DNA from: Yersinia nurmii
GTDB lineage: Bacteria > Pseudomonadota > Gammaproteobacteria > Enterobacterales > Enterobacteriaceae
Direction of reading: 5' to 3'
Length of the DNA stretch: 24,000 nucleotides
NCBI RefSeq assembly: GCF_001112925.1
Contig: NZ_CPYD01000016.1
Coordinates: forward strand, 35,882 to 59,881
This document shows, piece by piece, positions 2,855-21,271 of this stretch; position 1 is the first letter of the stretch; each line of letters starts with the position of its first letter. A program made the translations under genes and the position numbers. Below the pieces are notes generated by a model. It searched no databases and had not been told where the DNA came from. It saw only the letters and a program-made list of their open reading frames with translations.

Positions 2855-3349
2855 TTATGCACGCAGATTGACGTTAATCGTCTCTTGCGGTCGGCCGTTG
2901 GCCGTACGACGCGTATCGTTGTTCTGACGATCCGCTACTTCCAAAATATCTTGATTATTGACCAGTTCCGCCAATGTGATGTTGTTCAGGAAGCTGCTGA
3001 TACGCTCGCTCAAATCGCGCCACAGCGTATGGGTCAGGCAACGATCGCCCCCCTGGCAGCCTTCTTTACCCTGACAACGGGTTGCATCGACAGATTCGTC
3101 TACGGCAGTAATGACCGCGCCTACGGCGATCTGGCCTGCGTCTTTACCCAGCAGGTAACCGCCGCCCGGACCACGTACGCTTGCAACCAAGCCATTCTTG
3201 CGCAGACGTGAAAAGAGTTGTTCCAGATAAGATAACGAGATTCCTTGACGTTCAGAAATATCTGCCAGAGGTACTGGCCCGTCCTGGGAATGTAATGCCA
3301 CGTCAAGCATGGCGGTCACGGCATAACGACCTTTGGATGTCAGTCTCAT
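2855..3349 (-). CDS. iscR: Rrf2-family Fe-S regulator IscR
   Basis: 164-aa ORF starting [20 protein letters not shown] (Rrf2 wHTH). Carries the cluster-ligand motif [16 protein letters not shown]. It is the first gene of the isc operon. Confidence 0.97.
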
Positions 3350-7097: not shown

Positions 7098-8369
7098 ATG
7101 AGCCTAGACACTACACCAGTGCCTGAGCTCTCCGGTCAACAGCGCCGTTGTCATGCGTTATTGCTGCTGTTTACTCCGACATTGCCGGTAAAACTGGAGA
7201 CTATCAGTCAATTAAATGGCGTCGGGCTTCCGACCACCCGGCAAGATATAGCCGAGGTGGCGAACGAAATCCAGCGTTTCTATCATCTGGATATTCGTAC
7301 CAATCCGGCTGAGGACTGCCAACTACAAGGAACGTTACTGAATAAACGGCTGTGCCTGATTCATTGGCTACGCCGAGGGCTACGCTATTGTCCCGAGTTT
7401 ATCGATAATAACTTTGTGCCTGCGTTACATCAGGCGCTGCAATGGCAAGGTGAAAATGCCGTATTACCGCCGCTACAAGCTATCGTTGAACAATGTGAAC
7501 ATCATTTGCCTCGCCCGTTGGACGAACGTGACCGCTATTTTTTGCAGATTTACCTGGCCTACGCGGTTTGGGAAAATCAACAACAAAGCTACCCACAGTT
7601 AGAACAGCAGCAGGTGACATGGTTGAGCCAAAAGGTAGAACTGACCGCCGCCGAGAGCCTGTTTTACACCCTGAATAATCAGCTTCCCCAACCATTAGCC
7701 AGCAGCGAGCGGGATGTGTTTATCCTGACGTTGACCATGATTAAAGCGCATAGCTACAGCAGCAACCATTCCCCGGAAGACGCTCGCCTGATGGATTCCA
7801 TTCATCGATTGATTGAACGCTTTCAACAGATTTCCGGAATGGTATTCAGCAGTGACGATGAGTTAATTAGCCAACTATTTGCTCATTTGGCTCCAGCAAT
7901 CGAGCGCTGCCGTTTTCATATTGGCGTGGATAATATTTTACTGGATGAAATTAGCAGCAAGTATCCGCGCTTGTTACGGACGACTCGCGAAGCTTTAACC
8001 GATTTTGAACGGGAATATCAGATTGAATTTTCGGCCGATGAGCTAGGGCTGATAGCCATTAGCTTTGGTGCCTGGCTGATGCAGGGCAATGCGTTACAAG
8101 AAAAACAGATTTTACTGCTAACCGACGGGAATCCTGAGTTGGAGCAGCGCGTAGAACAGCAACTACGTGAACTAACGCTACTCCCCCTGTATATCAAATA
8201 CTTATCTTATTCTGAATACCTAAAATCTGGCGCTCCGCCCGGTGCTAATCTAGTAATTTCCCCCTATAAAAGAGAAGCACCCGAGCCAACGCCGCCGTTA
8301 ATTCAGGTGCTTTTACCGCTAACAAAAGCAGATCAGATCGCTATTCGTCGTTGGCTGGAAACGCCTTAA
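7098..8369 (+). CDS. csiE: Stationary-phase inducible protein CsiE (PRD-domain protein)
   Basis: 423-aa ORF sharing blocks with E. coli CsiE as recalled (QRRC...LL, RLCLxHWLRRG, YPRLxRTTR, FGAWLMQ, QQLRELTLLPL). GAAGG RBS upstream. Confidence 0.85.
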   Translation: MSLDTTPVPELSGQQRRCHALLLLFTPTLPVKLETISQLNGVGLPTTRQDIAEVANEIQRFYHLDIRTNPAEDCQLQGTLLNKRLCLIHWLRRGLRYCPEFIDNNFVPALHQALQWQGENAVLPPLQAIVEQCEHHLPRPLDERDRYFLQIYLAYAVWENQQQSYPQLEQQQVTWLSQKVELTAAESLFYTLNNQLPQPLASSERDVFILTLTMIKAHSYSSNHSPEDARLMDSIHRLIERFQQISGMVFSSDDELISQLFAHLAPAIERCRFHIGVDNILLDEISSKYPRLLRTTREALTDFEREYQIEFSADELGLIAISFGAWLMQGNALQEKQILLLTDGNPELEQRVEQQLRELTLLPLYIKYLSYSEYLKSGAPPGANLVISPYKREAPEPTPPLIQVLLPLTKADQIAIRRWLETP

Positions 8370-9523
8370 TCCGCCAGATCTTCTGGGTTAGCCACCACTT
8401 TTGGCCGGATAAATAGAGCCGGTACGGCCACCAGCGCCATCACCCAGAATACGCCGCCCTGAATATGTTCAAACAGGAAGCCGGAAATCACCGTCATCAC
8501 CGCAATCCCTCCTCCCATCGCCAACCCAGAGTAAACGGATTGCAGACGAATCACGTCCGCGCCACGGCGAGCGGCGATAAAGCGCATTGCCGCTAGGTGG
8601 CAAACGGTAAAGGAGCCGCAGTGTAAAATCTGAATCAGCAACAGCCAATGCAGCTCGGTAGTCGATGCCATCAGGCCCCAGCGAATAATCCCGCTGATAG
8701 CGGAAAGCAACAGCAGGCCGCGCGCCGTCCAGCGGCGGAATAGCACATTACTGAAAGCGAAGACCAGAATCTCGGCCACCACGCCCAACGACCACAGATA
8801 ACCGATAGTCGCCGCCGAATAACCGGCTTCTTTCCAGTAAATTGCGCTAAAGCTGTAGTAACCCGCATGAGCGCCTTGCAACAGCGTCACGCACAGCAAA
8901 AATCGCCAGACCGGCCCTTCAGACAGCAAGGTTTTCCACTTAGTCGCCGGTACTGTATTGCTACGAATCTCGCCTTTAGGCATCACGCTCGGACGTAATA
9001 AGACGCCCAGAAGCATCGCTGCTACCGCGACGGTCAGGCTATAAAGAATCGCGTTATGTCCCCAAACAGATACCAGTTTGCCGGTCAACGCTGAACCAAT
9101 GACAAACGCCAGCGACCCCCACAGACGTACCTTGCCATAATCCATTGAGATCTGTTTTTGCCAGGTCGCTGCCAGCGCATCGGTCAGAGGAACCAGCGGG
9201 CCGAAAAACAGGTTAAAACCGGCAATAACTATCATCAACCATGCCCAGCCGCTGCCAAACCAAAAACCAATGGCAAATGCCAGCGTCAGCAAAGCCAGAA
9301 TTCTTAGTGCAGTAACCAGATGGGAGGGATTTTTCACGCTAGGGGCAATAATTAAACTGCCGAGAAAGCGAGAAACCAGACCCGCACCTAACAAGATACC
9401 GATGGTTTCCGGCGGAATGCCTTCACCTTGTAACCACACACTCCAAAAAGGCAGGAAAATACCGTAAGAAAAGAAGTAGGTGAAATAACTGAGCGCCAGC
9501 CAGCGTGTTGATTGCAATACCAT
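8366..9523 (-). CDS. hcaT: MFS transporter HcaT (3-phenylpropionate transporter family)
   Basis: 385-aa ORF. The N-terminus MVLQSTRWLALSYFTYFFSYGIFLPFWSVWL is nearly identical to E. coli HcaT, and the rest is colinear. Confidence 0.9.
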   Translation of the reverse strand: MVLQSTRWLALSYFTYFFSYGIFLPFWSVWLQGEGIPPETIGILLGAGLVSRFLGSLIIAPSVKNPSHLVTALRILALLTLAFAIGFWFGSGWAWLMIVIAGFNLFFGPLVPLTDALAATWQKQISMDYGKVRLWGSLAFVIGSALTGKLVSVWGHNAILYSLTVAVAAMLLGVLLRPSVMPKGEIRSNTVPATKWKTLLSEGPVWRFLLCVTLLQGAHAGYYSFSAIYWKEAGYSAATIGYLWSLGVVAEILVFAFSNVLFRRWTARGLLLLSAISGIIRWGLMASTTELHWLLLIQILHCGSFTVCHLAAMRFIAARRGADVIRLQSVYSGLAMGGGIAVMTVISGFLFEHIQGGVFWVMALVAVPALFIRPKVVANPEDLAD

Positions 9524-11338: not shown

Positions 11339-12529
11339 ATGCTGGATAGCCAAACCATCGCCACTGTAAAATCAACCATTCCTTTGCTGGTTGAAACCGG
11401 TTCGAAACTCACAGAGCATTTTTACGATCGTATGTTTGCTCATAACCCTGAGCTGAAAGATACCTTTAATATGAGCAATCAGTTCAGCGGCGATCAGCGT
11501 GAAGCTTTGTTTAATGCTATCTGCACCTACGCGGCCAACATTGAAAACCTTGCGACTCTGCTGCCTGCGGTTGAACGTATTGCTCAAAAACACACCAGCC
11601 TGAGTATTCAACCGGCTGATTATCAAATCGTAGGCAAACATTTAATTGCAACGCTGGATGAATTATTCAGCCCCGGTCAGGAAGTGTTGGATGCGTGGGC
11701 CAAAGCTTACGGTGTGCTGGCAGACGTGTTTATTCAACGCGAAGAGCAAATTTATCGTGAAGTGGAAGAAAATATCGGCGGCTGGAGAACCCTGCGTCGT
11801 TTCCGCATTGCGAAAAAAGAGATGCAAAGCGACGTTATTTGCAGCTTCTTGCTGGAGCCGGAAGACGGCGGCAGCGTAGTGAACTTCAAGCCGGGTCAAT
11901 ATTTGGGTATTTACATCGAAGATAGCCGGTTAGAAAACCGTCAAATTCGCCAATATTCCCTGACCGCTGCGCCTAACGGTAAATCCTACCGTATTGCGGT
12001 AAAACGCGAAGAAAAAGGTACGGTATCCAACTACTTGCATAACATCGCGCAGGAAGGCGACATCGTGCGCATTGCACCACCGCGCGGCGATTTCTTCCTC
12101 GATATTTCACCGGAAACCCCAGTAGCACTGATTTCTGCTGGCGTGGGCCAAACGCCAATGTTGAGCATGTTGCATACGCTTTACGCTCAACAACATAGCG
12201 CCGAAGTGCACTGGTTCCATGCGGCGGAAAATGGCCGGGTTCACGCCTTTGCCGATGAAGTCGCTGAAATAGCAAAAAATATGCCGAACCTGAATCGCCA
12301 CGTTTGGTATCGCCGGCCGGAAGAACAGGATATCCCTGGTCAGCATTACCATAGCGAAGGCTTTATGAATCTGGCTGAGTTGCAGTCATTGATTACGCAT
12401 CCTGGTATGCATTACTACTTCTGCGGCCCCTTGGTCTTCATGCAGTTTGTTGGTAAGCAATTACTGGAAATAGGCGTCCCGGCAGAACATATTCACTATG
12501 AATGTTTCGGTCCACACAAAGTGATTTAA
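11339..12529 (+). CDS. hmp: Flavohemoprotein (nitric oxide dioxygenase) Hmp
   Basis: 396-aa ORF with an N-terminal globin domain and a C-terminal FNR-like reductase (RQYSL FAD motif, GVGQTPM NAD motif). Divergent from glyA, as in E. coli. Confidence 0.97.
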
Positions 12530-12554: not shown

Positions 12555-12587
12555 ACCGGCCAGTCTGCATTGTTGGCCGGTTTTTGT
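12555..12587 (+). terminator. Rho-independent terminator of hmp
   Basis: Stem ACCGGCCA (12555-12562) / TGGCCGGT (12574-12581), followed by TTTTTGTTG. Confidence 0.8.
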
Positions 12588-12659
12588 TGTATTGAATCTG
12601 CACTTTCCTCAGATAATTATTGTACTTATATTGTGATCAATAACGCCCCCGCTCGCTTT

Positions 12660-12731
12660 TATCATTGCAAACATCTATTATTTATATGAATGTTTAAATG
12701 TTCATATAATTGAAAATTAATATCATTGTAA
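12660..12731. promoter_or_regulatory. Ordered repeat-palindrome-repeat array upstream of yhfZ (candidate operator/promoter region)
   Basis: TATCATTGCAA (12660-12670), a 12-bp gap, the palindrome TATATGAA-N10-TTCATATA (12683-12708), a 12-bp gap, then TATCATTGTAA (12721-12731). The array lies 59-130 bp upstream of the yhfZ ATG in an AT-rich spacer. Confidence 0.3.
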
Positions 12732-12789
12732 TCAATAGTATTAAAGTCACTATCTGCACCCAGATAACATAAGGCTAAATACACCCAGC

Positions 12790-13689
12790 ATGAGTAGAAA
12801 ATTCATAAAAAAAGAAGGGTTGGCTCTGGTATCCATGGCGCGCTATTTAATTGGCGAACGCCCAGGAAATCGACTGAAAACCATCGACGAGTTATCGGAG
12901 AATTTCGCGATTTCCGTAGGCGTGGTTCAACACGCCTTGAAGGTATTGGAACAAGAAGGCGCTATCGTCGTAGAGCGCCGTGGCCGCAACGGAACGCAGC
13001 TTATGGATCTCAATATGTCTTGCCTGCTACAACAGGCGGATTTGGGTAATATGGTTTGCGCTATGCCGCTGCCCTATACCAAGCTGTACGAAGGGCTAGC
13101 CAGCGGATTAAAGGAGCAATTTACCATTTTACCGCTGTATTTTGCCCATATGCGTGGTGCAGAAGTGCGAGTCGAGTGTTTGATCGACGGCATCTACGAT
13201 ATGGCGGTAGTTTCTCGTTTGGCAGCGCAGGATTATGTTGATCAGGGTAAAGTTACCGTTGCGCTAAATTTAGGCACGGGCTCCTACGTTGACGGCCACC
13301 AACTGATTTGCCGCCGAGGCGAAGAACATAATATTCGCCGCGTCGGGCTGGATCCGCGCTCTCCGGACCAATGTCTGTTAACGGAAATTAAATTTGCCAA
13401 TCAAAATATAGAACGGGTCGATGTGCCTTACAGCGACTGCGTCGCGCAAATTAGCCGCGGTGAAATTGACGCAGCAATATGGAACCTGACTGACGATGTT
13501 TCCCATGATAATTTACAGGCCACCAAACTGCGTGGGGACGAACGCTATATTCAAGCCTCTCAGGCCGTGATATTAATTAGACCAGATAATCACCCAATAA
13601 AACTATTATTGGAGAATGGTATTAACTCACAGCAATTATTACAGCACCAAAGTGATGTACAACTCGGTAAAGTTGACCCACGTTATTAA
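12790..13689 (+). CDS. yhfZ: YhfZ-family transcriptional regulator (GntR-like wHTH plus C-terminal ligand-binding-like domain)
   Basis: 299-aa ORF. The N-terminal wHTH (IDELSENFAISVGVVQHALKVLEQEGAIVVERRGRNGT) is GntR-like. Length and the start MSRKFIKKEG match E. coli YhfZ as recalled. It is the first gene of the cassette. Confidence 0.85.
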   Translation: MSRKFIKKEGLALVSMARYLIGERPGNRLKTIDELSENFAISVGVVQHALKVLEQEGAIVVERRGRNGTQLMDLNMSCLLQQADLGNMVCAMPLPYTKLYEGLASGLKEQFTILPLYFAHMRGAEVRVECLIDGIYDMAVVSRLAAQDYVDQGKVTVALNLGTGSYVDGHQLICRRGEEHNIRRVGLDPRSPDQCLLTEIKFANQNIERVDVPYSDCVAQISRGEIDAAIWNLTDDVSHDNLQATKLRGDERYIQASQAVILIRPDNHPIKLLLENGINSQQLLQHQSDVQLGKVDPRY

Positions 13690-13708
13690 TGAATAGTCCG
13701 GAGATATT

Positions 13709-14077
13709 ATGGATCCGCGCCTCAGTATTTTATATCAGGCTGGGGTAATTGATGAAGAGGTATTCCTTGGAATGAATAAAGTTATCAATAGATTAGCTAA
13801 TTTTTGGCAAATATCCGTTGATAACGTTCAGGGGGAAATGGCGGTGACGCATATGGCTAATGCCCTGATGCGAACCCGCCGTGGCGAACTGATTAAGGGA
13901 ATGGATGCGGATTTGTTGTCCGAAATAATCCAAAGCGAAGATATTCAATATATTCGAGATATTAATCAAGATTTGCTGGCCTACTTTGATATTAAGCCTG
14001 ATGATAATGAGCAGGGTTACTTGCTGTCTAATTTGTACAGCCTCTACCTTGCCAGTAACCTACCACCTTTGAGATAA
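13709..14077 (+). CDS. yhfY: YhfY, small PRD-domain-only protein
   Basis: 122-aa ORF, about the size of E. coli YhfY (about 120 aa). Contains a PRD-like His context (MAVTHMANALMRTRRGE). GGAG RBS upstream, and 19 bp after yhfZ. Confidence 0.8.
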   Translation: MDPRLSILYQAGVIDEEVFLGMNKVINRLANFWQISVDNVQGEMAVTHMANALMRTRRGELIKGMDADLLSEIIQSEDIQYIRDINQDLLAYFDIKPDDNEQGYLLSNLYSLYLASNLPPLR

Positions 14078-14185
14078 GCAGCTACACTGAAGAACGCACC
14101 AACGCTGGTTCATTGCATAATAAATATTCAAAAAAATAATAATTTAAATTAATAAAATGACGCCTGAAAGCGTCCAGGAAACAGC

Positions 14186-15340
14186 ATGTTTTTGAATGCC
14201 TTAAGAAAACAGAACCCAGCTCTGATTGATACAGCGATTATGCTGTGGCAACAGGGTAAAATAGGCCCGGATACTTACGTTATCGATGTAGATCAAACGT
14301 TATCCAATGCCCAGAGTCTGCTGGACGAAGCCAGACGTTGCAATATCAAGCTATACCTGATGAGTAAGCAATTCGGACGCAATCCCGAACTCTGCAAACG
14401 CCTGTTGGCATGCGGTTATCAGGGCGTGGTGGCGGTGGATTTTAAAGAGGTCAGGCAACTCTATCAGCACGGAATTCCGGTGGCTCACGTTGGGCATTTG
14501 GTCCAGCCACCGTCGGGTATGGTGGACGAAATTGTCAGTCAGCAACCTGAAGTCATCACCATTTTCTCGCTGGAGAAAGCACAGCAAATTTCTGAAGCCG
14601 CTCAAAAGCAAGGCAAAAATCAGCCAATCATGCTGAAAGTCAACCAGGTAGGCGATCTGCTCTATGCCGGTCAGGAAGGCGGCTTTGAACTCAATCAACT
14701 GCCAGAAGTCATTCAGGCTATTGCTGCTATGCCTGCGATCAAACTGGTTGGCGTGACCCATTTCCCGTGCATGCTGTTTAATCCTCAGGAACAGCGAACC
14801 CTGCCAACCACCAATATGTTTACGCTGCTAGCAGCGAAAGAGATTCTGGAAAAACAAGGCATTAATGTTGAACAAGTCAACGCGCCTTCTGCCGCCTGCA
14901 TTCAAGCTATGCCCGAACTGGCACAGTTAGGCGTTACCCATACCGAACCGGGCCATGCGCTAACCGGCACGATTCCAGCCAACCAAAACGGCTCTCAGCC
15001 GGAAAAAGTCTCGCTGCTGTATCTCTCCGAAATCTCGCATCATGTCGGAGAGACCAGCTACTTCTTCGGCGGCGGTTACTACCGTCGTGGCCACCTGAAC
15101 AATGCACTGATATGGCACAACCAGGCTTACCACAACAGTCAGGTATTGCCTGTGGATGACAGCAGCATCGATTATTGCCTGCGTTTAAGCGATAAATTCC
15201 CGATCGACAGCCCGCTGGTAATGAGTTTCCGCACCCAAATATTTGTCACTCGCAGCGACGTCGCATTGGTGGAGGGAATCCAAAGCGGAGAACCAAAATT
15301 AATCGGCCGCTATGACAGTCAGGGGAATAGCCTGGACTAA
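14186..15340 (+). CDS. yhfX: YhfX, fold-type III PLP enzyme (alanine racemase N-terminal domain-like; putative amino-acid racemase/lyase)
   Basis: 384-aa ORF. The start [14 protein letters not shown] parallels E. coli YhfX, and the position in the yhf cassette fits. AGGAA RBS at 14176-14180. Confidence 0.85.
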
Positions 15341-15350
15341 GGAGATTGCC

Positions 15351-16589
15351 ATGAGTAAATTCATGGTATTGGTCATTGATAGTTTTGGTATTGGAGAAAT
15401 GCCGGATGTTCCTCTCGTCCGGCCGCAGGATATCGGTGCCAATACCTGCGGGCACATTCTTGAAACCCTTCCCGAATTATATTTACCCACGCTGGAAAAA
15501 CTCGGTCTTATCAACACATTAGGCTACACACCAAATTTAATGCAGCCCAATCCCTCCGCCGCCTTTGGTCGGATGTTATTGCAACATGAAGGTGGCGATA
15601 CCTTTATCGGCCATCAGGAAATTATGGGCACTTTACCTTTGCCACCACTTTCTATGCCTTTCTCTGCCGTGATTGATAACGTCGCAGCCCAACTTACCAA
15701 CAACGGCTATCAGGTAGAACGCATAACTTTAAATAACCTGAGCTATTTATGGGTGAATCAGGGAGCGGCGATCGGCGATAATCTGGAGGCCGATTTAGGT
15801 CAGGTGTATAACATCAGCGCTGATTTTAATCGATTATCCTTCGAGCAAGTGCTAGCCATCGGTCAATTGGTCCGTGAAACCGTTAAAGTCGGACGAGTTA
15901 TCGCTTTTGGGGGCGATTTGCCGGATACCGCCGATCTGCTGCGGGCGGCGGAAAGTCGTGAAGGGAAATATATTGGTATCAATGCGCCTAATTCCGGTGT
16001 CTATCGACACAATTTTCGCGTAGCGCATTTGGGTTATGGCGTCGATGAACGGGTGCAGGCTCCAGCCATGTTATGGCAGCGACATATTCCTACTGTACTG
16101 ATCGGTAAGGTTGCCGATATAGTAAGTAACGCTAATGGAATCAATTACGCGGGGATTGTCGATTCTCAGACCATTCTTGATATTATGCGCGACGAATTGC
16201 TCAAACCCGGAGACTGTTTTATCTGTACCAACATTCAGGAAACCGATCTGGCTGGTCATCAACAAGACACCCTGCGTTACGCCGACCGGCTGCAACTGGT
16301 AGACAGCGCACTCAATCAGATAATGGCCGCAATGCAACCCGATGACATTCTGGTTGTCATTGCCGACCACGGTAACGACCCCACCATCGGCCACGGTAAA
16401 CACACGCGAGAGCAAGTGCCACTGCTGGTTTATCAGCGCGGGCTTTCCGCCGTCGATCTAGGCACTCGCCGTACGTTATCCGACGTAGGTGCGACCGCCT
16501 GCGCGTTTTTCTCGGCGCCTATGCCGCAAAATGGCCAATCTTTTCTCACTCTGCTACGCCCATCGGTTTCCCGGAGCCATTCCCAATGA
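15351..16589 (+). CDS. yhfW: YhfW, phosphopentomutase-like metalloenzyme (alkaline-phosphatase superfamily)
   Basis: The ORF track starts at 15312. The ATG at 15351 has an AAGGAG RBS and gives [19 protein letters not shown], the DeoB-like N-terminal metal-ligand motif. ADHGNDPT is the C-terminal metal-ligand motif. The stop overlaps the php start (ATGA). Confidence 0.85.
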
Positions 16590-17473
16590 TTAACCCCAAT
16601 GGTTATACCTACGCTCACGAACATCTGCATATTGATTTATCTGGTTTTAAAGACAACATCGACTGTCGTTTGGATCAATACGAGCCGATATGTCAGGAAA
16701 TGCGCGAGCTGGTGAGCAAAGGCGTCAACAATATTGTTGAAGTCACCAATAAATACATGGGGCGTAACCCGCAGTTCTTATTGAATCTGATGCGAGATAG
16801 TGGCATAAACATCATCGCTTCAACAGGTTACTACACCGACCATTTCTATCCTCAATTGGTGCGTGACAGCTCGGCACAACAATTGGCACAGACCATGATC
16901 GATGAAATCGAAGTGGGCATTGATGGCACCGACCTGAAAGCCGGAGTTATCGCCGAGATTGGTACCAGCGAAAACTGTGTCACGGACGACGAAGCAAAAG
17001 TGTTTCACGCCGCCGCACTAGCGCACCATGCCACCGGTCTCGCCATTTCGACCCATACCAGCTTTAGCACTATGGGACTGCAGCAAATCGCGCTGCTGGA
17101 GCAATATGGCGTACCGCTGGATCGGGTGGTTATCGGCCACTGCGATTTAAAAGAACAGCCGGATTTGATTTTGCAGATGATCGATAAGGGCGTGTATGTC
17201 CAGTTCGATACCATTGGTAAAAACAGCTATTTCCCGGATGAACGACGCATCGCCATGCTGGTTTATCTGGCTGAGCGCGGTGTGCTAGATAAAGTCATGC
17301 TTTCGATGGATATTACCCGCCGTTCTCATTTAAAAGCCAACGGTGGCACAGGTTTCAGTTATCTGGTTGATTCATTTATTCCAATGCTTTTGGCCGCAGG
17401 TATTTCACACCATCAGGTGGAAATGATGCTGCGCCATAATCCAAATACATTCTTCTCTACGCAAGGACAGTGA
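16586..17473 (+). CDS. php: Phosphotriesterase homology protein (amidohydrolase superfamily, binuclear metal centre)
   Basis: 295-aa ORF with the HxH motif [12 protein letters not shown]. Long blocks are identical to E. coli Php ([39 protein letters not shown]). Confidence 0.92.
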
Positions 17474-17475
17474 CT

Positions 17476-17829
17476 ATGAAAAAGATCGGCATCGTCGGGT
17501 TACAACGTGAGCTGATACGAGAACTGATCGATAAAACTGCGCCCGCCAGCTTTGAAACTTTTATTCTGACCGATATGGATGCAGCGGTAAAAGTGAAAGA
17601 TGGGCAGCTGGATTATTATATTGGCGCATGTAATACCGGTGCAGGTGCAGCATTATCCATGGCGATAGCCATTATTGGTTATAACAAAAGCGCCACCATT
17701 GCCAAACCGGGTATCAAAGCCAAACCGGAACAGATCGAGAAATTCATTGCCGAAGGCAAAGTCGCCTTTGGTTTATCCGTGGAGCATATTGAACACGCCA
17801 TTCCGCTGCTGATCACTCAGCTGCGCTAA
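17476..17829 (+). CDS. yhfU: YhfU (DUF2620) small soluble protein
   Basis: The ATG at 17476 gives MKKIGIVGLQ..., matching the E. coli YhfU N-terminus (MKKIG...). The track GTG at 17470 overlaps the php stop. The conserved block is GQLDYYIGACNTGAGAALS. 117 aa. Confidence 0.85.
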   Translation: MKKIGIVGLQRELIRELIDKTAPASFETFILTDMDAAVKVKDGQLDYYIGACNTGAGAALSMAIAIIGYNKSATIAKPGIKAKPEQIEKFIAEGKVAFGLSVEHIEHAIPLLITQLR

Positions 17830-17839
17830 GGGGATAACC

Positions 17840-19138
17840 GTGGATTACATTCATATCATCGTGGTTGCTTTGCTAACCGGGATGACCGCCCTGCTTTCTC
17901 ACCGCTCCGTCGCCGTATTTCATGACGGTATCCGCCCGATTTTACCGCAGTTGGTAGAAGGCAATATGAGCCGCAGAGAAGCGGGCAGTATCGCTTTCGG
18001 CCTCAGCGTCGGTTTTATCGCTTCAGTCGGGATTTCCTTTACACTTTCCACCGGTTTACTGAACTCCTGGCTACTGTTCCTGCCAACTGACATCATCGGC
18101 GTGCTGGCGATCAACAGCTATCTAGCATTTGCTCTCGGCGCCGCCTGGGGCATTCTGGCGCTGACCTCACTGCCTGCAGTCAACACAGCGTTAACCTCTC
18201 TGCCAGTCAACTTTATCGGTTCGCTGGGTGAACTGAGCAGCCCCGTTATCTCTGCCTTTGCGCTGTTCCCACTGGTCGCTATTTTCTATCAGTTTGGCTG
18301 GAAAACTGCGGTAGTTTCAGCAATTATCGTGCTGATGACCCGTTTGGTTATCACTCGTTTCACCGGCTTGTTCCCTGAATCCATCGAAATCTTTGTCGGC
18401 ATGGTATTGCTCATCGGTATAGCTATTGCTCAGGATCTTCGCGCCAAAACCCACCTCGGCGGTGGTGGAGGACATTCAGTATTTGAGGAGCGAACCCAGA
18501 GGATAATTAAGAACCTGCCGCTATTGGCTATTGTCGGCGGGCTGATTTCCGCCGTTGCCAGTATGAAACTGTTTGCCGGTAGCGAAGTATCAATTTATAC
18601 GCTGGCAAAAGCCTATGCGCCGGGGATTACGCCGGAAGAGTCACTGTCACTGGTTCATCAGGCTTCATTGGCCGAATTTATGCGTGGCTTAGGCTTTGTG
18701 CCACTGATTGCCACCACAGCGCTAGCGACTGGCGTGTATGCGGTAGCCGGTTTCACCTTCGTCTTTGTCGTCGGTTACCTGATTCCAAACCCGCTGCTGG
18801 CGGCGTTGGTCGGTGCCGTAGTGATCTCGCTAGAAGTGCTGCTGCTACGCACTATTGGTAAATGGCTTGGCCGCTTCCCATCAGTGCGTAACGCTTCGGA
18901 TAATATCCGTAACGCTATGAATTTGTTGATGGAATATGCGTTACTGATCGGCGCTATTTTTGCTTCCATCAAAATGGCTGGCTATACCGGTTTCACTATT
19001 ACCACGGCGTTATACTTCCTGAATGAAGCTATTGGCCGCCCGGTAATGAAAATTGCAGCGCCTGTCGTTGCAGTGATTCTAGCGGGTATCTTGCTTAACC
19101 TGTTCTATTGGCTTGGATTGTTCGTCGTTCCGGTCTGA
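17840..19138 (+). CDS. yhfT: YhfT, polytopic inner-membrane protein (putative transporter)
   Basis: 432-aa highly hydrophobic ORF with a GTG start and an AAGGGGA RBS. Long blocks match E. coli YhfT (AVFHDGIRPILPQL, FLPTDI, FMRGLGFVPLIATTALATGVYAVAGFTF, SVRNASDNIRNAMN). Confidence 0.85.
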   Translation: MDYIHIIVVALLTGMTALLSHRSVAVFHDGIRPILPQLVEGNMSRREAGSIAFGLSVGFIASVGISFTLSTGLLNSWLLFLPTDIIGVLAINSYLAFALGAAWGILALTSLPAVNTALTSLPVNFIGSLGELSSPVISAFALFPLVAIFYQFGWKTAVVSAIIVLMTRLVITRFTGLFPESIEIFVGMVLLIGIAIAQDLRAKTHLGGGGGHSVFEERTQRIIKNLPLLAIVGGLISAVASMKLFAGSEVSIYTLAKAYAPGITPEESLSLVHQASLAEFMRGLGFVPLIATTALATGVYAVAGFTFVFVVGYLIPNPLLAALVGAVVISLEVLLLRTIGKWLGRFPSVRNASDNIRNAMNLLMEYALLIGAIFASIKMAGYTGFTITTALYFLNEAIGRPVMKIAAPVVAVILAGILLNLFYWLGLFVVPV

Positions 19139-19222
19139 TGGAAAAACGCAGTGTTCAGCGGATAAATGCCAGACAATCGACAGCAAGCTAGTAGCAACGT
19201 CGATTAGCATTCAATTAGCGGT

Positions 19223-19255
19223 AAAAAAAGAACCCCATAAATGGGGTTCTTTTCT
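19223..19255. terminator. Bidirectional rho-independent terminator shared by yhfT (+) and glnB (-)
   Basis: Stem AAAGAACCCCA (19227-19237) / TGGGGTTCTTT (19242-19252) with a TAAA loop. An A-run on the 5' side and a T-run on the 3' side mean it can terminate transcription from both directions. Confidence 0.8.

Positions 19256-19295: not shown

Positions 19296-21271
<1,976 letters not shown>

Follow-up and report, generated by a model that had tools for sequence, protein, structure and literature searches.

What does a cassette of seven uncharacterised genes do in Yersinia nurmii, and how did it come to lie between two housekeeping neighbours, hmp and glnB? The question was raised by a stretch of 24 000 nucleotides (contig NZ_CPYD01000016.1, positions 35 882 to 59 881; hereafter the window), in which seven genes on the plus strand, yhfZ-yhfY-yhfX-yhfW-php-yhfU-yhfT, occupy positions 12790-19138 of the interval from hmp to glnB, as judged from open reading frames (ORFs) and from Pfam and NCBIfam matches. 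The cassette is a copy of a known, functionally uncharacterised operon family and not a new kind of system. The general picture that we obtained is that of an operon which probably is controlled by YhfZ, senses the state of the phosphotransferase system (PTS) and serves uptake and degradation of a phosphorylated amino-sugar-like compound. The genes are the following.

12790-13689, plus strand: yhfZ, regulator with a GntR-type helix-turn-helix domain (PF14502, HTH_41) and a YhfZ_C effector domain (PF14503)
13709-14077, plus strand: yhfY, PRD-only protein of 122 residues (PF00874)
14186-15340, plus strand: yhfX, fold-type III pyridoxal phosphate (PLP) enzyme of the YhfX family (PF01168, Ala_racemase_N; PF21279, YhfX-like_C)
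15351-16589, plus strand: yhfW, phosphopentomutase-like metalloenzyme, intact, 412 codons (Metalloenzyme in Pfam; NF009049, 617 bits versus 254)
16586-17473, plus strand: php, binuclear-metal amidohydrolase of the phosphotriesterase family (PF02126, PTE; NF007373, 536 bits versus 486)
17476-17829, plus strand: yhfU, DUF2620 protein of 117 residues (PF10941), with an RpiB/LacAB-like fold in its AlphaFold2 model
17840-19138, plus strand: yhfT, polytopic membrane protein, presumed permease (PF10797, 548 bits)

A preceding analysis of the letters without database searches (the sequence-only reading) had assigned the same gene identities, which are upheld by Pfam and NCBIfam. The matches to PRD, YhfX-like_C, DUF2620 and YhfT exceed their Pfam gathering scores. 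The start of yhfW was set at 15351, because the NCBIfam match begins at residue 14 of the longest ORF. With this start, all four spacings on which that reading had based translational coupling from yhfX through yhfT are exact: 10 nt between yhfX and yhfW, a 4-nt ATGA overlap between yhfW and php, 2 nt between php and yhfU, and 10 nt between yhfU and yhfT.

The evidence for control by YhfZ comes from the regulator itself and from a palindrome in front of its gene. YhfZ matches its NCBIfam equivalog NF041241 with 358 bits (cut-off 260), and its C-terminal domain matches PDB entry 2OZZ (E 5e-75). The sites in question are these.

12681-12710, plus strand: sigma-70-like promoter candidate for yhfZ (TTTATA, 18-nt spacer, TATAAT; a consensus match only)
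12701-12714, no strand assigned: candidate YhfZ operator TTCATATAATTGAA, of the form TTCA-N6-TGAA, overlapping the -10 hexamer
14127-14140, no strand assigned: degenerate second operator-like site TTCAAAAAAATAAT in the yhfY-yhfX spacer, weak, with two mismatches in the right half-site
14159-14174, no strand assigned: hairpin GACGCCTGAAAGCGTC with a perfect 6-bp stem, directly upstream of the yhfX ribosome-binding site in the 108-nt yhfY-yhfX spacer

The promoter candidate is the best promoter-like match of the region (10/12). The exact palindrome TTCA-N6-TGAA has two matches in the whole window, one being that at 12701-12714. For comparison, one genome per species was scanned with YhfT, and the resulting 80 loci (designated by L numbers) were annotated by tblastn with the window proteins. 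Of 74 related loci, 62 have the palindrome in the 150 nt that precede yhfZ, compared with a background of 0.127 per kb. It keeps to set positions there: Enterobacteriaceae have it at -46 and -22, Vibrionaceae at about -25, and Yersinia, Ewingella and Rouxiella at about -90 to -105. The exact form also occurs within the yhfY-yhfX spacer of 24 related loci. Firmicute loci carry TACA-N6-TGTA at equivalent places (8197 in L102; 7980, 8145 and 9122 in L103; 6615 in L104), with a background of 0.0076 per kb. Because the half-sites co-vary and the palindrome precedes the gene of a GntR-type regulator, T(T/A)CA-N6-TG(A/T)A is best read as the operator to which YhfZ would bind. The literature searched contains no description of this palindrome. 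When one mismatch was allowed, 14 palindromes were found in the window where 12 were expected, which is not above chance, and our claim is limited to the exact site at 12701. The hairpin at 14159-14174 was called by the scan as a terminator-like site of the minus strand.

The second regulatory protein, YhfY, links the cassette to the PTS. A profile built from eight YhfY orthologues matches the PRDs of LicT and GlcT (E 1e-8). One of the two usual PRD histidines is kept: eight sequences from two phyla, ranging from Yersinia to Clostridium, all have His48 and Arg55. Judged by these features, YhfY is a bona fide PRD; it is made without a fused RNA- or DNA-binding output domain.

The same seven families were found clustered, with shuffled gene order, in Vibrionaceae, Aeromonas, Salibacterium, Neobacillus, Clostridium and a metagenomic contig. 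The loci that cross the phylum border were found through more distant YhfT homologues. The gene orders, with single letters for yhf genes, are as follows.

Vibrionaceae and Aeromonas: Z-(Y)-php-U-T-X-W
Salibacterium aidingense: Z-Y-U-T-php-S-W-X-nagB
Neobacillus pocheonensis: Z-Y-U-T-php-S-X-W
Clostridium gasigenes: EIIC-Z-Y-U-T-php-X-W
Metagenomic contig (L101): Z-Y-php-U-T-X-W-EIIC

In every locus that has both members, yhfU is adjacent to yhfT and yhfX to yhfW; the order of X and W is swapped in Salibacterium. yhfT directly follows yhfU wherever examined. An additional gene, yhfS, encoding a YhfS-like_C PLP enzyme, was found in Enterobacteriaceae and Bacillales loci, and tblastn detected none in the window or in the examined loci of Yersiniaceae and Vibrionaceae; yhfS is therefore an accessory gene. 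The sequence-only reading had the seven core genes right and overlooked the absence of this eighth one. A kinase gene is present in no version of the cassette that was examined.

Genes for the membrane component, enzyme IIC (EIIC), of Lac/Cel-family PTS permeases (TIGR00410) adjoin the cassette in six of 16 Vibrionaceae loci, in metagenomic contig L101 and in Clostridium, and two of them score above the cellobiose IIC cut-off. In the loci of Vibrio ezurae, V. halioticoli and Photobacterium, the EIIC gene is accompanied by genes for IIB, IIA and a DUF7916 protein. The PTS genes are located at 16384-19340 in L080, 3067-6015 in L087, 14035-15360 in L075 and L076, 6917-8296 in L101 and 6615-8046 in L104, and are also found in L088 and L082. 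The first PTS gene is preceded by the operator motif at a distance of 50-95 nt in L080, L087, L088, L101 and L104; in L082, about 155 nt lie between the motif and the EIIC gene. Since the motif precedes them, the PTS genes appear to belong to the same regulon in those bacteria. In Salibacterium aidingense, a nagB gene for glucosamine-6-phosphate deaminase (L102, 15772-16521; 270 bits, equivalog cut-off 237) begins 12 nt after yhfX on the same strand.

The enzymes of the cassette were compared with characterised families. YhfX matches the structure of its E. coli orthologue (PDB 4KBX, E 6e-143). In YhfW, the motifs DS.GIGE, GDT (with the nucleophilic Thr), GH..D, ADHGNDP and HTRE align with phosphopentomutase of Bacillus cereus (3M8W), and the cap region (approximately residues 97-247) is not alignable to it. 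By its sequence motifs, YhfW is predicted to be a competent phosphomutase with a substrate other than that of DeoB. Php matches PDB entries 1BF6 and 4LEF (E 7e-131). Its metal ligands His11, His13, Glu124, His157, His185 and Asp242, the complete set of six in the E. coli structure, do not vary across phyla, and its closest characterised relative in NCBIfam is the phospho-furanose lactonase NF045706.

For YhfU, an AlphaFold2 model was obtained with a pLDDT of 96.7. Its top Foldseek matches in PDB are RpiB structures (3SDW, 6FXL, 3K7S and 2VVR; TM scores 0.66-0.71, probability 1.0). The invariant loop D-Y-Y-x-G-A-C-N-(T/S)-G includes Cys52-Asn-Thr/Ser54, and Cys52 may take the place of the catalytic Cys of RpiB (Cys66/Thr68), as a weak sequence match to 3QD5/3SDW and the position within the secondary structure suggest. 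In RpiB, specific roles belong to an Asp-His pair and to phosphate-binding residues near the C-terminus. An assignment of YhfU as a cysteine-type EIIB was rejected: there is no EIIB among the top 50 structural matches and the Cys is in the RpiB position. The AlphaFold2 model of YhfT has a pLDDT of 82.9 and a pTM of 0.82. Neither a sequence relative of YhfT in PDB nor a Foldseek match above a TM score of 0.30 was found. YhfT was also rejected as a PTS EIIC, with a probability of 0.1% in the hhalign comparison with Lac/Cel EIIC and no Foldseek match. The family is small, with 303 representatives at 50% identity among 1.84 billion proteins.

These data can be combined into a pathway, for which the cassette would be a self-contained and inducible module of uptake and catabolism. 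YhfZ would bind TTCA-N6-TGAA overlapping the -10 region of its own promoter, and transcription would be released or activated once the substrate or an intermediate of the pathway occupies the effector domain, while YhfY would report the phosphorylation state of the PTS to the YhfZ switch. YhfT with YhfU as obligate partner could carry out transport or the first conversion. Php would then open a ring, lactone or ester, YhfW would allow migration of the phosphate, and YhfU, as an RpiB-like Cys enzyme, may interconvert aldose and ketose. YhfX is expected to perform PLP chemistry at the amino-bearing carbon, together with YhfS where this is encoded. Where a Lac/Cel-family PTS is encoded behind the same operator motif, as in some bacteria, the substrate would enter the cell in phosphorylated form. 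Most likely, the substrate belongs to the phosphorylated amino-sugar-like compounds (an amino-aldonate or its lactone, or a hexosamine derivative). A substrate of this type had been suggested by the sequence-only reading; the suggestion gains strength from the operator and the PTS genes, nagB, the PRD histidine and the RpiB-like YhfU, and it is still a class that we infer. A more far-reaching view would be that YhfT and YhfU form a structurally unprecedented system for uptake or a first step, in which a membrane protein lacking a solved fold relative is obligately paired with a minimal RpiB-like cysteine protein; that this pair is wired to the PTS via a split regulator, made up of a free PRD sensor (YhfY) and a GntR-type DNA binder (YhfZ) at T(T/A)CA-N6-TG(A/T)A operators; and that the cassette represents a new class of PTS-coupled carbohydrate loci reaching from Firmicutes to Gammaproteobacteria. 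We consider this view rather unlikely.

The second part of the question, how the cassette came to its site, was approached from its borders, which are formed by the following features.

11339-12529, plus strand: hmp, left neighbour
12555-12587, plus strand: intrinsic terminator of hmp, left border (10-bp stem at 12555-12581 with six G-C pairs, T run; called by the terminator scan)
about 19223-19255, no strand assigned: bidirectional terminator-like hairpin common to glnB, AAAAAAAGAACCCCATAAATGGGGTTCTTTTCT, right border, read in the sequence
19296-19634, minus strand: glnB, right neighbour, followed by glutamine-dependent nadE

The arms of the right-hand hairpin, GAACCCCAT and ATGGGGTTC, lie between A and T runs; they are visible by eye and were missed by the terminator scan. 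ORF, Pfam and NCBIfam data and the sequence itself agree with the earlier description of a seven-gene block between the hmp terminator and this hairpin. No tRNA, flanking direct repeat, integrase, insertion sequence or mobility ORF was found at the block or its borders.

The cassette was found at the glyA-hmp | glnB-nadE junction in ten representatives of Yersinia species and one metagenome-assembled genome. The same junction was seen in ten Y. ruckeri genomes, in eight loci retrieved with YhfU named as from Y. enterocolitica and in one further contig. Since the junction searches started from cassette proteins or from a GlnB that is identical to the one in the window, species with an empty site could be missed. 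GlnB of the window is identical to that of Y. ruckeri, and at the nucleotide level the cassette is 80-82% and the flanks are about 85% identical to this species. The GC content of the block is 0.482 compared with 0.495 in the rest of the window; at third codon positions (GC3) it is 0.43-0.56 in the cassette genes and 0.50-0.55 in the flanking genes. In pairwise comparisons within Yersinia, the ratio of non-synonymous to synonymous substitution (dN/dS) of yhfT is 0.010, yhfU and yhfZ have values of about 0.02, php of about 0.03 and yhfX of 0.05-0.06; the neighbours glyA, hmp and nadE have 0.003-0.028. YhfT is 95-97% identical among Yersinia species whose DNA is about 82% identical. The cassette genes are thus under strong purifying selection. 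The flank-like GC content, the lack of tRNA, border repeats and mobility genes and the low dN/dS values argue for long residence at the junction, and the block has almost certainly been orthologous and inherited there since before the sampled Yersinia species diverged.

Elsewhere, the cassette occupies other sites: between trpS and cysG, together with yhfS, in Enterobacteriaceae (about 45 species), between speB and OEP in Ewingella and Rouxiella, and between metH-iclR and gnt in Serratia. As four chromosomal sites are used across Enterobacterales, the cassette must have moved as a unit at some time. The junction in Yersinia is thus derived only on a deeper timescale, and one can speak of an 'insertion' only when other families are compared.

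Two Serratia-type loci, L027 and L030 (8630-11290), have php-yhfU-yhfT alone with the operator motif in front. The L030 contig is labelled Pseudomonas lundensis, and its YhfT is 78% identical to that of the window, as in Serratia proteamaculans, which suggests a mislabelled or contaminated assembly.

Within the genus, the presence of the cassette is not polymorphic among the sampled Yersinia, and the polymorphism which the sequence-only reading had expected at this junction was found in a form that it had missed, the loss of yhfW. This gene is intact in the window and is lacking from every other Yersinia locus examined, where a spacer of about 90-260 bp separates yhfX from php. In Y. ruckeri the spacer keeps 133 bp of yhfW, which correspond to window positions 16084-16214 with 78% identity. 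The spacers of Y. frederiksenii, Y. alsatica, Y. massiliensis and Y. vastinensis keep 21-36 bp, corresponding to 16091-16145, and the same small piece (16110-16145) survives in several Yersinia species. Six of the ten spacers examined retain the last 26-34 bp of yhfW including the ribosome-binding site of php. Remnants are contained in L012 (8500-8760), L016 (8450-8760), and L018 and L074 (8620-8760). A promoter scan revealed no consensus promoter in the retained fragment (window 16084-16214).

The survival of yhfW fragments in the other Yersinia indicates that the seven-gene state is ancestral and has been preserved in the window. At the non-synonymous sites of hmp (dN), the window is at a distance of 0.073 from Y. 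ruckeri and of 0.156 from the other Yersinia. Since the flank distances place the window beside Y. ruckeri, yhfW should have been lost at least twice independently. As strong purifying selection persists on the six other genes, YhfW must be dispensable for whatever maintains them. A separate observation concerns Y. aldovae, in which yhfX is a pseudogene with in-frame stops (L013, 7850-8760).

Two other histories have to be weighed against long inheritance of a working operon. A recent horizontal insertion, that is, a genomic islet of this lineage which would be present or absent among close relatives, was essentially what the sequence-only reading had proposed. It would account for the 44 bp that separate hmp and glnB in E. 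coli, for the four chromosomal sites in Enterobacterales and for the AT-rich, non-coding borders of the block. Within the genus this proposal does not hold, as junction and composition are those of a resident segment: the junction is identical in every Yersinia locus retrieved, from more than ten species, GC and GC3 resemble the flanks without an island signature, neither tRNA nor integrase nor border repeats are present, the identities to Y. ruckeri are similar in cassette and flanks, and the decayed yhfW fragments speak for long residence. We therefore regard a recent insertion as very unlikely. Still less credible, with hardly any probability left, is the view that the cassette is a cryptic or decaying remnant which has no function in present Yersinia. 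Loss of yhfW in all other sampled Yersinia, the yhfX pseudogene of Y. aldovae and the degenerate second operator of the window would fit decay, and yhfZ of Y. pestis has been reported as truncated (PMC12445494). Yet all seven genes of the window are intact with complete catalytic motifs, the six retained genes have dN/dS values of 0.01-0.06 in the species without yhfW, and YhfT is far better conserved than the DNA of these species.

If the cassette is functional, its chemistry might be another one. The same operon could, for example, act on lactones or lactams of amino acids, on phosphonates or organophosphate esters, or on derivatives of D-amino acids, with Php as esterase or lactamase, YhfX as racemase and YhfW as phosphatase or phosphodiesterase. 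The phosphotriesterase family of Php, the proximity of YhfX to racemases (Ala_racemase_N, a weak match to ornithine racemase, alanine racemases in PDB), the weak Phosphodiest match and divergent cap domain of YhfW, the resemblance of the accessory YhfS to Cys/Met gamma-lyases and the lack of a kinase gene would all be compatible with it. However, three of the enzymes have their closest characterised relatives among pentose- and hexose-phosphate enzymes, a PTS carbohydrate is indicated by the PRD protein, by the Lac/Cel PTS genes behind the operator motif and by the neighbouring nagB, and Php reaches only 83 in the organophosphate hydrolase model with its cut-off of 500. We judge such a chemistry to be doubtful, with a modest chance of being correct. 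A lower probability is given to YhfT and YhfU as a new group-translocating permease of the IIC/IIB kind, in which the phosphate would be carried on Cys52 of YhfU and no kinase would be needed. This would explain why a PRD sensor is encoded and a kinase is not, and it agrees with the tight spacing of yhfU and yhfT in every locus, with the Cys in the invariant glycine-rich loop and with occasional gene calls of YhfU-YhfT fusions (P0030). The fusion calls may, however, be frameshift artefacts. Moreover, the fold of YhfU is that of RpiB and not of EIIB, its Cys follows beta-strand 3 instead of lying in the N-terminal loop of EIIB, YhfT has no detectable relation to EIIC, and several loci have canonical Lac/Cel PTS genes in addition to YhfT and YhfU.

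The phosphorylated amino-sugar-like substrate and its YhfZ-controlled, PTS-sensing operon thus remain the reading that we prefer, and a number of observations weigh against it. The window itself contains neither a PTS gene nor a kinase gene and thus nothing that would account for the phosphate, its second operator in the yhfY-yhfX spacer is degenerate, and nagB adjoins the cassette in one lineage only. The scores of the enzymes for sugar-phosphate families stay below the cut-offs: YhfW has 141 bits for TIGR01696 (cut-off 341) and 176 for NF003766 (cut-off 256), which are DeoB equivalogs, and Php has 86.5 bits for NF045706 (cut-off 630). YhfU lacks the Asp-His pair of RpiB, in place of which Gly8-Leu9 are invariant, and is about 30 residues shorter. 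YhfT resembles no solved transporter and shows no similarity to PTS EIIC (hhalign probability 0.1%), its permease role being based on topology and gene position. The Yersinia species without yhfW keep the six other genes under selection, so that YhfW is not indispensable to the pathway, and neither an experiment nor a publication assigns a substrate, according to the literature searched and the RefSeq annotation of E. coli K-12.

The yhf/php genes are a long-standing orphan operon of E. coli, although structures of Php, YhfX and the C-terminal domain of YhfZ are available in PDB. A core of seven genes which is kept across two phyla makes this problem more tractable. Inducers can be screened with a reporter built on the sharply defined candidate operator, and the substrate class is narrowed by the Lac/Cel PTS genes and nagB, which in some bacteria apparently belong to the same regulon or operon. 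Yersinia offers a natural knockout series, as most species have lost yhfW with the other six genes under selection, whereas the genome studied here retains it. YhfT looks like a transporter fold without a solved relative.

Some further features of the window were recorded. An Rfam search of the whole window gave no match inside the cassette. It did identify an IscS-1 ICR thermometer (RF02783) at 2771-2954 on the minus strand with 189 bits (gathering score 58); the match spans the start of an iscS-like ORF (1571-2800) and overlaps the end of the upstream ORF of 164 amino acids (2855-3349). A second PRD protein of 423 amino acids is encoded at 7098-8369 on the plus strand, and from the gene order of E. 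coli we take it to be csiE-like. Its gene is convergent with one for an MFS_1_like transporter (8366-9523, minus strand), the ends overlapping by 4 nt, and the pair is probably unrelated to the cassette. The gene of the glutamine-dependent NAD synthetase (CN_hydrolase and NAD_synthase domains; 19649-21271, minus strand) separates glnB from glrR in the window as in all Yersinia loci; in E. coli, glnB is directly followed by glrR and there is no NAD synthetase gene at that site.

The best-known relative of the cassette is the yhf operon of E. coli. The sequence-only reading had stated that hmp and glnB are neighbours in this species and that the yhf genes lie by trpS and frl, and both statements were confirmed in E. 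coli genomes: hmpA and glnB are 44 bp apart, followed by glrR, and the order in K-12 is trpS | yhfZ-Y-X-W-php-U-T-S (b3383-b3376) | frlRDCBA, yhfL-cysG. The php-yhfU-yhfT segment of the window, with about 69% nucleotide identity, is matched in 5076 of 5426 complete E. coli genomes. The operon resembles that of the window in its seven families, their order, the ATGA overlap of yhfW and php, a protein identity of 52-76% and the TTCA-N6-TGAA palindrome upstream of yhfZ. It differs in its site (trpS|frlR instead of hmp|glnB), in the eighth gene yhfS, and in having two operators at -46 and -22, whereas the window has one at about -89. All eight products are still annotated as putative or uncharacterized in the K-12 RefSeq entry. 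The sequence-only reading had assumed that no substrate or pathway is assigned to these genes, and our literature searches likewise gave no published one for the yhf operon. Mentions are incidental and concern bacterial interspersed mosaic element (BIME) repeats near yhfZ, a weak candidate sigma-54 site in front of this gene, a hit for yhfZ in the Keio collection, and strain-variable genes listed for L. rhamnosus. The six-gene form of Y. ruckeri, the Y. enterocolitica type, Y. frederiksenii and others shares junction and flanks with the window, has a YhfT that is 94-97% identical, and differs in the reduction of yhfW to fragments.

Among characterised enzymes, DeoB (3M8W) shares with YhfW the core domain and all metal-binding and nucleophile motifs, whereas the cap (substrate) domain is unalignable and the scores stay below the DeoB cut-offs. 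Php has the fold family and the binuclear-metal ligands of the phospho-furanose lactonases (NF045706; Lmo2620 type) but scores 86 instead of 630 bits. With RpiB and LacAB, YhfU has in common the fold and the Cys-x-Thr-Gly loop which closes strand 3. It differs by its length (117 versus about 150 residues), by Gly-Leu in place of Asp-His after strand 1 and by the location of its gene, which always directly precedes that of a membrane protein. The C-terminal helix of RpiB carries phosphate-binding arginines, and YhfU is without that helix.

Free-standing PRD proteins are also found in the EF_0829/AHA_3910 clusters (TIGR03582), which, according to the TIGRFAMs descriptions, combine a PRD protein with uncharacterised membrane proteins, a PLP enzyme and an amidohydrolase. 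The partner families differ from those of the cassette, and YhfY was rejected as a member of TIGR03582, its score being 29 bits (E 1e-6) with a cut-off of 69. The PTS-regulated catabolic operons controlled by PRD regulators, such as the LicT/BglG antiterminators and the activators of the LevR/MtlR type, share with the cassette a PRD with a conserved histidine and, in some relatives of the cassette, PTS permease genes behind the operator. Unlike these regulators, YhfY is a free-standing protein of 122 residues, DNA binding is left to the separate GntR-type YhfZ, and the window has no PTS permease. The D-glucosaminate system (dga) of Salmonella is a PTS-regulated catabolic operon with a PRD regulator. 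By analogy with DgaE of that system, we infer that the PLP enzyme YhfX may act on an amino-sugar-type intermediate.

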